Source of the DNA: a virus
Lineage: Duplodnaviria > Heunggongvirae > Uroviricota > Caudoviricetes
Direction: 5' to 3' (one strand)
IMG/VR virus record: IMGVR_UViG_2522572021_000015
Length of the DNA stretch: 37,960 bases
Shown: piece by piece, positions 24,001 through 30,000 of the stretch
How the letters are laid out: every line of letters starts with the position of its first letter
Numbering within the stretch: position 1 is the first letter of the stretch
Program-made: the position numbers

Positions 24001-27000
24001 TGATAATGTATTAATGGGGTCAATCATATAGGGCGTCAGCGATGACTCCCACGGACCGGAAGTATTGGCTCCCCGTGGAACCCGCATATAACGCCTGATG
24101 GCTTCCGCTACTGGTAACCGGCTGGGTGGGCGAAACAGCGAGGCCACTTCGCGCCAGATATCGGATGCGCGGCTATGGCTCTCGTTCACCTGATTCACAT
24201 ATCGGCCTCATCACAACAGTCAATGACTGCCTTTTCCAGTGTGTCGCGGATCTCATCAACCACAATCTGTACTTCATTCAGTTGTGATGCGGTCCACCCC
24301 CTGTCCCTCTCCAGCCGGTCAGGCCAGGTTTCCAGTACCTGAACTATCGCTTTCACCACGACAGAAAAGGACCGCCTGACATCACTGACTGGCACAAGCT
24401 GACCAGTTTCCTGCTCAAATTTCAGTCGGTCACGTTCTGACTGGTACCATGCTTTACGCGCATGAGGATCCATTTCCTCGTTATCTACAGGCAGAGGAGC
24501 TTTCATCAGCTCGGCAAGGATATCTGTCAGTCGGTACAGTTTGAGATTGCTCTCATGACCACCGGCTGGGCTTATGTTTTTTACCCGAGCCGCAACAGTC
24601 TGTCGATGAGCACCGGATAATGCGGCCAGTTGGGAAATATTCAGATGCAGATTTTTTAATTCACGATCCATAACTCCCCCTGAAAATTATGTAAACACAC
24701 ACCAGTGATGAACAAAAAACAACCAGATTCGACACTAAAAATTTTTATTTTTCTATATATCAATAACTTACACTGGTGGTGATGGTGCCATAAAAATCAA
24801 AAAATGCGCCTTTTTCCGCGCCGCCCGCCCCGTGTTCAGGCCCACCCCACCAGGAGGACCCGCAAAATGATAATGGTTATCATTTGTAATGTAGTCCGGT
24901 TTCTTCCACCATCGCACCGGACCAGCGACTATGAGGGGACAACGCCGCGCTCCGTTAACGCGGTAAACCCCGGTGTGTATCGTTTTTGATTATCCCCGCA
25001 CACTCGCGCAGAGGAGTCTCCCTGTCGGGCTGCGGTCTCTGTTAATGAGGGAATACAGCGACGATACGGCGCATCCGCAAAACTTAGTTCAGGCACTGAG
25101 TGCGGATATAGTCCTGTGCCCCTTCCAGCTGCTTCTGCATTGTCATCAACCGTTCTCTGAGGATGAAATAATCCCGTTCAGCGGTGTCTGCCAGTCGGGG
25201 CCCGGTTGCATTATCCACGCCGGAGGTGCCGGTGGCTTCACGCACGGTACCGGAGCAGGTGGCGTTGATCCGCAGGCGCTTACGACCAGCGGCAACATCA
25301 GCACGCAGAGTTTCATTTTCAGCTCTCGCATCGGCTAATTCCCTCGAGTATTTTGCATCGAGCGCAGCAACATCGCGCTGGCGCACCTGCATATCAGTAA
25401 TGGTTGCGTTTGCCAGCTCCAGCTCTCTGGCTTTTTTATCGCGCTGCGCTTTGTAGGTGATGGCGTTATCGCGGTAATGATTCAGCCCCAGACTAAGCGC
25501 ACCACAGGCCACCAGCAGGGCAATGATGACCACACACAGAACGCGGTTCATTTCACCACCAGCGTATCTGACCGATGAAATAACCGGAGGCCATAATCAC
25601 AAACACCAGCCAGATAAGGATGAACTTCCAGGTGGATAATTTTTCAGCCATCACTCGAATCTCCCGAATCAGTTTGCTAAAATCAAACACACTTTCTCCT
25701 TTGACTTTTCCGAAGTCAGGAAACACAAAACCCCGCTTGCTGCCAACAAACGGGGTTTTTACTTTTATTCACTTAGGTTTTGCCAGTTCGCAGGATTTCG
25801 TGTTATCCGCCCGCGTTGGCCAACGTCATTTTTCAGCAAAATATTCTGCTTATCTGTCGATTCCCCAGCACGCCAGCGCGCTCTCCTGGTCACGACGGGA
25901 TACCTGACCGTAACAGTTATTTGAGCGGATACGGCAGTCTCTGCCACCGTCCTTAATCCACCAGCGAATCGCTTCACACGCTCCTCTGCGATCGCCTGCA
26001 TTAATTCGTTTATAAAACGTCGACGGGAAACACTTACCGGGGCCAATGTTGTAAGGACAGAATGACGCAATACCCGCTTTCTGGGGTTCAGTCAGTGGCA
26101 CTTTGATGTTTTTCTCCACCCATGCCAGCGCCTTATCACGCTCAATGGCGTTAACCTGGTCGCATTTTTTCTTCGACAACTTCATGCCCGGGACGACAGG
26201 TTTGCCATCCACCCTGGTGGCACCACGACAAATGGTCCAGATACCCGCACCATCACGGTATGCCGTGGTGTGGTTACCTTCTTTTTCATCCAGAAACTGG
26301 TCGAGAATATCAGGCGCAGGCGCCCCTGCGGCAATCAGCGCCAGAACGGCAGCCGACAGGCCGTATTTGATTTTGGTGTTCATGGATATTTATCAGGATT
26401 TATCGGTTCCGAATCCCTGGATATGTTAAGCCTTCACCCCACCAGTGGTGGGCACTGGCGGGTTCTTAATTTCCCCGGATGATCGTGGATTACATTCCAC
26501 CAGGAGATTACTTATGCTTATCTATCCAGCGGCAGACCTCCGTTTACAGGGACGCAGAGCACAACCATGGGATAAAACAACCACTCATAAATATCGTCCC
26601 GGTCAATATTATGACTTTCGTAAACACCCGGAACTGATCGAGACACACCTTGAGGATTTTGTTGAATATTCAGACAGACAAGCGATTCAGACCTTTTTTT
26701 CTTTTGTTAAGTGGATCAACAGCAATTCATCTGCATTCGAGAGCACGGACTGCATGTTTTCAGGAACACCAAAGGTTGATGAATACGCCCCGGTATTTGG
26801 TTGCACCCATGCGTCATCTGGCCGCTTCGAATTTTTGTTTCGCGATACGAAAATAAACCAAAATGAGCGAGCTGTCGGATGGGTACTTAACAAACTATCG
26901 CTCTACCTTCAGAAAGAACGGCCCGATTTTTGTAAAGGAACCTTTGGCATCGTTCCCCTCATGACGGAATATACCGACTCCGGCGGTAACGAGTTCACCG

Positions 27001-30000
27001 GTTATCGTATTTGTGTCTATTTCGATGCTTACGGGAATGGAACAGAGGATACCTGGACTTCTCTCAACATCATGTTTGATGGCCTCATGAAAGCCACCAA
27101 AAGAATGAGCAATGAAACAATCACTGGCGAGATGCGTCCCCTTTAAAAAATTATCCAGAATCTCACTATTTGCAGAGCGCTCTCTGTTTTTTTGAATACG
27201 GAAACACTCTGCGAGATTTCTGCTCATCACTTTCCGGCAATAATCGTAAAACGCCGCGAACTGCTCATCACGGCGTTTTTTTTCACCTTCGGAAGGGATC
27301 TGCACCGACAGTTTTTTATTCAGTTCAACGACGCTGTTCTCCAGTTTTTCAATGCGTGATTCGATATCATCTTTTTCTGATTATTCCCGGTAGTTTTCCT
27401 CTGTAGGTTATCAACACATCCTGCGCCTCTAAAATTACGGGACGCTTTTCCGGTAACGGACCATCCCCTTCACATAACCCGGCAGCAACATCCATGAAAA
27501 ACTGCTTCGCCTGCTTTTTCGCCTCAGCTTCGTAAAACTCCAGCGTGGCACCTTCAGTACGGTCAAGACTAATCGCCACATCTGGCAACAACAGTGACGG
27601 ATACCCACCAATTTCCAGTGCCACAGTAACAGTAATCTTATCCGGGTAATTATTTATCCCTTTAACAACCAGTTCGTATTTTTTCTTCATCACTTTACTC
27701 TCCCCGCGCCGCCTTACGCCGGTCTTCTTTAATCTTGAAATACAGGTTCGTCAGATATGTCAGCAGCCCAAACAGCAGACTCCCCAGCACGCCTATCGCC
27801 ACCCACTGGGACGGAGAGACTTTGTCCAGCAGCTGCAGTAACCAGTATCCCGTCCCCACCGCTGACGTGGTGTATGACACACCCGTTGTGATTTTTTCCA
27901 TCTGGTACATACCCCGTCTCCCGTTATCCGGAAGCTGACAACAATAAAAAAGCCACCAGTTAACTACTGATGGCTCTGATAACTCATGCAGGCGTCTCAG
28001 ACGACCCACTGACACTACCGGTGAGTTTAACGATACCTTCCATTTGACTGGCTCACTTTTTATGATGATGCCGGTGCATTTATCTCCAGCACCAGACTTT
28101 CTATCTCAACGCCATACGCTGCATTTTTTGTAACATCCGTCAGCGTCAGCGCATTCAGTCCCAGTGTCATACTGTCTTTTATAACCTGGAATGCCGGGCC
28201 AGCCACTCCATTCAGTTTCGGAGTAACCGTGGCACTGCCGGCGGTGAACACCAGCTCCAGCGTCTGCCAGTCGTTACCGTAATCGCCGAACTCCCCCAGC
28301 TTCGTGTTTCCGGCTTTCCTGTGATGCATCAGATTCACTCTGCCGTCAGTGGTCTGAGTGAAGTACGACATCAGGAACGGATTACCGGTACCCGTCATCG
28401 CCACACCATCAGGAACGGGAGCATCCGTATACAGATAAATCTCCAGCCCGAACTGATTGTTGGTCAGTGCGCCTGACAGGCGGAACTTACAGGTCAGTCT
28501 GCCGCCCTGTGTCAGCAGGGTAATTGCGTCATCCACCGGATGCGTCAGGGACCAGGTTTTATTGCTCTGCTTGGTGATCTTAAATACACCATCTGACAAC
28601 TGAATTCCGCCATCCTTAATGCTCCAGCCCTGCGCAGCAGCCTCTCCGGCTGCCGGCAGCAGGGAGATTGTGCGAACGGACGTATCTGCAGACGGACCCG
28701 ATGGCGTGTTGCCGCCGGGCGAGGGTTTGATTTCCGGTGCCTTACCACTGATGAAGGCTGAGGTGCGCCCGGCTGCGTTCAGAATAGCGGTTGCCATACG
28801 ATCCGGAATAATGCTCCTGCGCGCCCATGAACTGAAATGTGTCGGGCGGTTTGATGATACCTGGTTTCCATTCGTTCTCGATGCCGCACCGTAATATCCT
28901 GATGCCGGAATATCCGGATCTTCTGCCGGCGCGTTAGTGGCGGTATTGACGCCGTTACCGTCTGTCATGAAGGGCACAAAATAAACGCCCTCACTCTCCC
29001 TGTTTTTGTACGCCCCGTAAATGGTGTTGTACTGGGTGCCGTAGGTATTTTTCCAGTAATACGTCGTGTCACCACAAATCCACGGCACATCTGCAGCACT
29101 GCCACCATGGCACTGCGCGTTAAACACGGAGAGGTCAGCACGAAACTGTGTCAGCATGGCTGTAAACAGCGCAGGTTGCTGTGCGTGGGTGGCGGCGCTC
29201 ATGTCAAACTCTCCCTGCATCCAGCACACCGCCAGCAACACATTTTTCGGGTTCTTCTGTAATGCAGCTTTAGTGCGCGCAATCAGGTCCTGATATAACG
29301 GTTTACCCACACCCCAGCGCGCCGAATCCTGGCTGGCCCCCGCGTCCGCACTGAATGTCCCCTCCGCGCCCTGGGTAAATGCCGAACCACCACGACAGCA
29401 TGGTACCAGCAGGATCCCCGCGTTATTCGGGATATACGGAAGCAGTTTTTTGGCAATATGTAAGCCCTGGCCGACACAGCCGTACTGCCCTTTGCTCAGG
29501 TCTGCCTTCGGATGATTCAGCGTACTCATATCCTGCACATCATGCAGGCAGTGGTCGGCCGGAATAATATCGTTATATCTGCAGGCAGCCCCACCCGGCG
29601 TAACTGTACTGCGGCGCGCCAGCTGTTTAATGCGCGGATCCGGAGCATCGTATGAATCCGGCAGCGGAAGCCCTTCACCGTAAGCCATGGCATTGGACTG
29701 CCCGGCCAGTACGATGACGTAGTACCAATCCGGCTCAGTTGCACCACTGACCACCACATCACCTTCTGCTGTAATCGCCTGCATCAGGGTATAAGGGGTT
29801 ATGGCCACCGGACTACCAAACGGCTGCCAGCCCTCTTTCAGTTTGTGTGTCAGCTTTTCCGCAAGGTCTGACGGCGACGCCGCCCTGACAACATCATAAT
29901 GTTTAAATGTCATTATTCCTCCCGGCCGGGATAGTGTATTAAATCAGATATGGAGTGGGCTGTAGTCCGGAAGCCTGAATGACACACGGGGACTACAGCC

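Follow-up and report, generated by a model that had tools for sequence, protein, structure and literature searches.

An opposite-strand gene in a prophage lysis cassette

We analysed a stretch of 37,960 nucleotides (nt) of viral DNA (IMG/VR record IMGVR_UViG_2522572021_000015; Caudoviricetes), here called the window, and focused on a gene for a 210-amino-acid (aa) protein that lies on the plus strand inside a minus-strand lysis cassette. The window is 100% identical to Escherichia coli O145:H28 RM13514 (NZ_CP006027.1) and represents a lambdoid prophage integrated beside ssrA/smpB. Its late genes run on the minus strand in the order Q antiterminator, sialate esterase, holin, DUF1327, insert, endolysin, a 45-aa open reading frame (ORF), Rz and the head and tail genes. 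The features at the locus are as follows.

27695-27910, minus strand: class II (S21-type) holin, 71 aa (PF04971, E = 8.5e-33; 'class II holin family protein' in the Prokaryotic Genome Annotation Pipeline, PGAP)
27367-27693, minus strand: DUF1327/YdfR gene, short form, 107-108 aa (PF07041, E = 8.2e-46; phrog_406, E = 6.7e-59)
26449-27379, no strand: insert of 931 bp, delimited by alignment to phage H-19B (empty site)
27183-27380, minus strand: out-of-frame remnant of the C-terminal extension of long-form DUF1327 (phrog_2091 positions 117-182, E = 2.1e-30)
27248-27283, plus strand: stronger hairpin (27248-27279) and U-run, 100 nt past the stop of the 210-aa gene (folding against shuffles)
27172-27194, plus strand: weak hairpin (27172-27187) and T7, 26 nt past the same stop (terminator scan)
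26514-27146, plus strand: 210-aa cargo gene, WP_000909834.1, "hypothetical protein"
26694-26700, plus strand: T7 homopolymer within the 210-aa gene, a recurrent frameshift site
26502-26506, plus strand: AGGAG Shine-Dalgarno sequence, 7 nt before the ATG (sequence reading)
26392-26427, plus strand: conserved 36-nt element ATCAGGATKT-N14-CCBGGRTATGTT, 86 nt before the ATG, with the blocks ATCAGGAT / CCCTGGAT and TATGTT
25850-26383, minus strand: endolysin, lysozyme family (PF00959, E = 3e-25)

From its sequence, the N-terminus of the endolysin reads as a Gly/Ala-rich hydrophobic stretch resembling a signal-anchor-release (SAR) domain, and the protein carries an E-x8-D-x5-T motif. Holin and endolysin match a phage 21-type pair of pinholin and SAR endolysin, with release from the membrane predicted. 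An earlier note on this DNA had put the two genes about 1.3 kb apart, and the distance from the holin stop to the endolysin start is 1311 bp (26384-27694). The note had taken contiguous S and R genes as its baseline, which is wrong for the present phage group: YdfR/DUF1327 normally intervenes, as in essQ-ydfR-rrrQ of the Qin prophage.

The 108-aa gene next to the holin is such a case. It had been described as unrecognised and as part of the insert; its product scores 154.6 bits against PF07041 (cutoff 25), and the gene lies outside the insert. Its start codon follows the holin stop by 1 nt if GTG is taken and by 4 nt with the ATG chosen by PGAP (27690), and its 3' end (27380-27440) is of the H-19B type. 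In Qin of strain K-12, essQ-ydfR-rrrQ-rzpQ are contiguous, and YdfR and the 108-aa protein share membership in PF07041 and a position directly after a class II holin and before a lysozyme. Since ydfR occupies the same position in Qin, the 108-aa gene can be regarded as a normal resident of the cassette; by sequence it is assigned to a known family and to the usual occupant between holin and endolysin. The two loci differ in that ydfR overlaps the start of the lysozyme gene rrrQ in Qin, whereas 983 bp separate the corresponding genes in the window, where a remnant of a longer DUF1327 form also follows out of frame.

Comparison with related prophages, as the earlier note had proposed, delimits the insert. 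Homology to H-19B covers 25801-26448 and 27380-27904 of the window, and only 19 bp lie between these blocks in H-19B, so the insert spans 26449-27379, almost exactly the earlier estimate of 26445-27366. It comprises the 5' region of the cargo gene, the gene itself, the terminator-like hairpins and the remnant of the longer DUF1327 C-terminus. Its GC content is modestly lower than that of its flanks (0.43-0.455 vs 0.49-0.52). The site is empty in H-19B and holds other cargo elsewhere. PhiR12_1 shares the flanks 26301-26459 and 27237-27750 and has 303 bp between them with a different plus-strand gene of 86 aa ('DUF1823'), and Stx2-86 carries yet another plus-strand gene, orf6, at the same place.

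The plus-strand ORF is a genuine gene

The 210-aa ORF, its AGGAG ribosome-binding site and a downstream hairpin with T-run are all present as first described. Homologues have TAAGGA/AAGGAG at the same distance from the start. The second hairpin folds at -14 kcal/mol (z = -3.78; 0/200 shuffles as stable), and the A-tract upstream of it makes it a potentially bidirectional terminator by prediction.

Full-length homologues with 53-65% identity occur in Salmonella and in metagenomic and viral contigs, and all are 210 aa long except one with a short C-terminal extension. Across five diverged homologues only the plus frame is free of stops, and each minus frame contains at least 5. Substitutions among the five fall at codon positions in the order pos3 > pos1 > pos2, and the ratio of nonsynonymous to synonymous substitution rates (dN/dS) is 0.10-0.24 wherever dS is not saturated. 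The plus-strand ORF is thus a coding gene under purifying selection. Among 24 related loci sampled, 20 have an intact ORF and 3 are truncated to 113 aa by slippage at the T7 run; locus L003 has a 1-nt deletion there.

The earlier note had allowed that the gene might instead be the minus-strand ORF 26895-27305, which begins with GTG, and in Stx1a phage records the corresponding gene would be a 263-aa DUF1327 fusion, with the plus ORF as its shadow. The annotation of Stx1_14040 indeed calls the 263-aa minus ORF and omits the plus ORF, the antisense frame is open in three homologues in tail contexts, and the minus ORF begins with ~44 residues of true DUF1327-long sequence, which match positions 143-182 of phrog_2091, a 183-aa family with a DUF1327 N-terminus. 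However, in each homologue every minus frame is interrupted by at least 5 stops over the length of the gene, the antisense frame is stopped in both Salmonella homologues, and the matches to phrog_2091 and phrog_1085 stop short of the overlap with the plus gene. In the window, moreover, the remnant does not share the reading frame of DUF1327 and its sole start is GTG. Because of the stops in the homologues and the ending of the phrog matches before the overlap, we rejected the minus-strand ORF as the real gene and regard this alternative as extremely improbable.

The N-terminal part of the minus ORF corresponds to the C-terminal extension of long-form DUF1327, since the phrog_2091 match extends to positions 117-182. 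The long form is intact in PhiR12_1 (169 aa); in Stx1_14040 its frame is kept and continues along the antisense strand of the cargo gene, giving the 263-aa ORF. By this comparison the minus ORF reads as a remnant of the longer DUF1327 form followed by antisense read-through.

The annotation of the locus varies among records. In Stx1_14040 (L012, LC567819.1) the 263-aa minus ORF stands at 4512-5303, and the plus-strand gene is omitted in Stx1a phage records. On identical DNA (L002 and most RefSeq E. coli genomes), PGAP mostly leaves the gene uncalled and marks DUF1327 as a pseudogene.

A conserved 36-nt element precedes unrelated cargo genes

The 36-nt element upstream of the gene has a single match in the window and none in 100 shuffles. 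A scan of IMG/VR yielded at least 118 loci that could be analysed, and all counts of element loci given here are among the matches listed. The element has the endolysin gene on its left in 109 of the 118 loci, tail gene J in 5 and another tail gene in 3. To the right, a plus-strand ORF starts within ~130 nt in 103 of the 118. These ORFs belong to at least 10 unrelated families: proteins of 90 aa (44 loci), 88 aa (28), 104 aa (14) and 87 aa (6), the 210-aa family (5), several singletons and a 268-aa DUF6602/NucC-like PD-(D/E)xK nuclease. Conservation ends directly after TATGTT.

The element lies 63-72 nt upstream of the 210-aa homologue between tail genes I and J, and it also accompanies cargo genes at sites away from R. 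It also precedes other cargo genes, and R alone in H-19B. Because it precedes at least 10 unrelated families of cargo ORFs, the slot can be described as a cargo (moron) hotspot. We infer a common 5' regulatory element for the occupants of the slot, for which the simplest candidate is a promoter that uses TATGTT as -10 sequence.

The other occupants (Stx2-86 orf6, PhiR12_1 'DUF1823', the 90-aa and 87-aa proteins and others) have the same R and DUF1327 flanks, the same plus orientation and likewise the 36-nt element, 55-130 nt upstream. Their proteins are mostly 73-116 aa and are unrelated to the 210-aa protein, which fills the slot rarely (8 of 50,697 phage records). To our knowledge, neither the slot between ydfR and R nor the shared upstream element has been described. 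A literature search on DUF1327, ydfR with holin, the WP accession and hotspots in prophage lysis cassettes returned nothing on the 210-aa gene or the slot.

The element doubles as the 5' leader of R. It forms an imperfect palindrome, ATCAGGAT...ATCCCTGGAT, with inner TCGG/CCGA arms, directly upstream of the endolysin, and the inner arms differ among phages yet remain complementary (GATTT/AAATC in H-19B). Within 15 nt of the endolysin ATG, no Shine-Dalgarno sequence can be recognised (26384-26459, minus-strand reading). The palindrome might also act as a translation leader of R or as an operator.

At one locus (L215, IMG/VR UViG_3300011827_000043) the element (3868-3903) stands beside a tail gene and is followed by the 268-aa DUF6602 protein. 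This protein matches the PADLOC models PD_DExK (E = 2.7e-26) and NucC (E = 1e-13) and is a defence-type effector.

The 210-aa protein belongs to an undescribed family

We searched the protein by remote homology and by structure, as the earlier note had suggested. It had no match in Pfam (E ≤ 0.1), PHROGs, PADLOC or NCBIfam, and 91 family members likewise had none in library searches that included Pfam and PADLOC. The view that neither product of the interval belongs to a known family thus holds for the 210-aa protein and fails for the 108-aa DUF1327/YdfR protein. The antirepressor, lysis-accessory or defence functions considered earlier find no family signal in the libraries searched; antirepressor domains (Ant, KilAC, ORF6N and Bro) in Pfam matched neither the protein nor the 91 family members.

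A profile search of 1.84 billion cluster representatives recovered 251 relatives, nearly all ~200 aa long, with invariant residues R15, P18, E47, D48, D79, N115, G163 and G174. The AlphaFold2 model built from the 91-sequence alignment is confident (predicted local distance difference test 90.3, predicted template modelling score 0.88). It shows a four-stranded antiparallel sheet packed by long helices; its N-terminal segment is less certain. Searching PDB sequences with the profile gave noise only (E ≥ 0.08), and a fold search against BFVD gave template modelling scores of at most 0.36. The 210-aa protein and its relatives form a family of soluble alpha/beta proteins that has not been described. 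Its conserved charged residues suggest catalysis or ligand binding.

Distribution and mobility of the gene

The gene is present at ≥99% identity in 132 of 5426 complete E. coli genomes, mostly Shiga-toxin-producing E. coli (STEC). Among 50,697 phage records, tblastn (E ≤ 1e-3) found it in 8, all of them Stx1a or Stx2a phages. Close homologues occupy the lysis slot in E. coli and, on the opposite strand, the interval between tail genes I and J (L009, L010 and L122-L136), and others adjoin the tape measure gene (L137 and L138). In Salmonella enterica (L007, AAUDWV010000001.1, 6001-11257), a 64%-identical homologue stands just upstream of the holin of a P22-like prophage. It is encoded opposite to the late-gene strand, in the accessory region between Q and the lysis genes, together with a Kiwa system (kwaA and kwaB). 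Another Salmonella homologue lies in a prophage remnant near sodC. Because no neighbour is conserved across these sites, the gene seems to act alone.

These sites bear on a role in lysis, since the earlier note had offered lysis timing as one possible function. The position between the holin and YdfR genes and R would suit an accessory factor that tunes holin and endolysin timing, but the gene is on the strand opposite to the lysis genes, its close homologues also sit between tail genes I and J, at the tape measure gene and in a prophage remnant, and distant homologues reside in chromosomes of Nitrospira, Myxococcota and Acidobacteriota that have no lysis genes nearby. In addition, the other cargo genes of the slot are unrelated to the 210-aa protein, in which no transmembrane or signal sequence is apparent by eye. 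With homologues in tail operons and non-phage chromosomes, we consider a role in lysis very unlikely.

The gene could also be a neutral or selfish passenger of recent acquisition, carried from one STEC prophage to another by recombination and without a current function for phage or host. Identity of ≥99% among the E. coli copies of different serotypes points to a recent spread, and 3 copies in 24 are frameshifted at the T7 run. The host prophage is itself defective, with frameshifts in the genes for the terminase large subunit and a K-like C40 peptidase, a partial gene for tail assembly protein T and an internal stop in ninG. On the other hand, purifying selection is strong across the enterobacterial clade, exact length and invariant residues are kept, and the gene persists in intact Stx1a and Stx2a phage genomes. 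We judge a mere passenger quite unlikely.

More distant relatives in species genomes are chromosomal and occur in Nitrospira, Myxococcota/Polyangiales, Acidobacteriota and a few Gammaproteobacteria. We surveyed neighbourhoods at 80 genome loci, with 5 contig look-ups. Recurrent neighbours were lineage-specific only, namely thpR-cinA-recA in Nitrospira and DUF1415 in four related Acidobacteria, and we therefore rejected neighbourhood as functional evidence.

In Nitrospira (L025-L096), the homologue is convergent with thpR, which we take to encode a 2'-5' RNA ligase/cyclic phosphodiesterase-like protein, and lies near cinA, recA and a gene for an HD-GYP response regulator, names that reflect our own reading of the ORF sequences. 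This synteny is conserved; because it is lineage-specific, it was not taken as functional evidence.

A chromosomal family in environmental bacteria, with invariant charged residues that suggest an enzyme or ligand binder, raises the alternative of a counter-defence or phage-benefit enzyme that is made from its own promoter during infection or induction and helps the phage instead of protecting the lysogen, for example by acting on a host nucleotide or other small molecule. Phages do capture host enzymes of such kinds, and some neighbours encode phosphoesterases or nucleotide-related proteins (thpR, cinA and HD-GYP in Nitrospira; Exo_endo_phos and Metallophos elsewhere). However, these associations are lineage-specific, and at the lysis, I-J and L007 sites the gene runs antisense to the late operon, an orientation that speaks against late expression. 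Neither known anti-defence families nor fold searches yielded a match for the protein. We judge this alternative unlikely.

A probable moron in a cargo hotspot

On balance, we lean towards reading the 210-aa gene as a moron, an accessory cassette of one gene, placed in a hotspot for cargo between DUF1327/YdfR and R of the lambdoid lysis cassette. The definition of a moron follows Juhala et al. 2000 and Cumby et al. 2012, as cited in PMC11364771. Like lambda bor and lom and HK97 gp15, the 210-aa gene is a single gene placed between genes that are adjacent in relatives, on a strand independent of the late operon. It also resembles classical morons in its own ribosome-binding site, terminator-like hairpin, lower GC content and location in a late (lysis or tail) region. 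It differs in that its product is unrelated to theirs and has no membrane or lipoprotein features or known family, and in that its promoter activity and its expression in the lysogen are predictions.

The earlier note had called this a classic moron position with independent transcription. The insertion, the ribosome-binding site, the terminator-like hairpins, the lower GC content and a slot shared with other opposite-strand genes bear out the position. Independent transcription is a prediction, for the plus strand upstream offers the conserved 36-nt element and no sigma-70 consensus.

Several observations weigh against the moron reading or parts of it. A consensus scan found no sigma-70 promoter upstream on the plus strand, and the -35 region of the 36-nt element is poor. 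In 109 of the 118 loci, 8 nt separate the element from the start codon of R, which it could for that reason serve rather than the cargo. The first hairpin (-7.1 kcal/mol) is no better than shuffles, and the second lies within former DUF1327-long coding sequence. About 1 in 8 E. coli copies is frameshifted, and the E. coli copies are so nearly identical that they are uninformative on selection within the species. As to a defensive role, the models of PADLOC-DB v2.0.0 gave 0 matches for the protein and the 91 family members, and the neighbourhoods of distant homologues are ordinary chromosomal ones and not defence islands.

We then propose a working model for the moron. In the lysogen, the late operon would be silent and the gene would be transcribed rightwards from the 36-nt element, which stands before all cargo types of the slot and has TATGTT as a -10-like sequence. 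Transcription would end at one or both hairpins with T-runs (27172-27194 and 27248-27283). Once the prophage is induced, late transcripts antiterminated by Q would cross the gene in antisense and dampen its expression. Such a convergent arrangement would amount to a 'non-contiguous operon', as described for prophage defence genes such as Tai/Ati of phage phi80 (PMC11364771). The 210-aa gene is like Tai/Ati in lying opposite within phage transcription units, with overlap of transcripts in the window suggested by the architecture, and unlike Tai/Ati in that no partner counter-defence gene was identified beside it. No similarity to Tai or to other phage-encoded proteins was detected, since tblastn of the 50,697 phage records matched only the 8 Stx phages at E ≤ 1e-3.

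The protein would probably work by itself as an enzyme or a ligand binder, acquired from bacterial chromosomes. Our guess is that it may benefit the lysogen or prophage, for example by protection against other phages. This guess draws on position, orientation and company, namely the Kiwa system beside a homologue and the NucC-like nuclease as alternative cargo.

It is tempting to go further and speculate that the gene founds a new single-gene family of prophage immunity or counter-immunity, with a fold absent from solved structures, captured from bacterial chromosomes and moving among late-operon slots, and that the 36-nt element is a portable promoter or operator that marks an as yet unrecognised hotspot of accessory genes before the endolysin in Stx and related lambdoid phages. 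We hold this larger proposal as doubtful. If true, the element would be a handle for finding further cargo genes.

The locus thus appears to combine a known kind of element, the moron, with a protein family absent from the libraries searched and a seemingly unrecognised cargo hotspot. The gene is carried by Stx1a- and Stx2a-converting phages, annotations mostly leave it uncalled or call the wrong strand, and its family has no entry in Pfam, NCBIfam, PHROGs or PADLOC. The slot before the endolysin resembles diversity hotspots that elsewhere yielded new phage-defence genes. If the gene alters phage susceptibility or lysogen fitness, it would bear on prophage competition in Shiga-toxin-producing E. 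coli.

Other features of the prophage

The remaining late genes near the cassette are the following.

31570-32193, minus strand: Q antiterminator
28060-29913, minus strand: sialate esterase
25553-25690: 45-aa hydrophobic ORF preceding Rz (WP_000459345.1)
25084-25551, minus strand: Rz spanin with the embedded Rz1 ORF 25146-25331 (PF03245, E = 3.4e-50)

A strong hairpin (GCCACCAGTTAACTACTGATGGC) followed by a T-run lies on the minus strand at 27945-27974, between the sialate esterase and the holin and ~35 nt before the holin start. The prophage small RNAs (sRNAs) of the Pas group (PasA and PasC) have been placed between sialic acid esterase and holin genes (preprint 10.64898/2026.05.13.724894). 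An Rfam scan of 24500-28500 matched no RNA family.

Between the endolysin stop and the 45-aa ORF, a hairpin flanked by an A-run and a T-run (25730-25756) resembles a bidirectional terminator. The position between R and Rz holds an antirepressor gene in other Stx phages, and the R-Rz gap may for this reason be a second cargo slot.

The prophage also carries nleG7 and a Lom-family gene. A further ORF of 590 aa (34562-36334, plus strand), annotated by PGAP as hypothetical and with no match in Pfam or PADLOC, is embedded in the minus-strand nin region and is another candidate opposite-strand accessory gene.

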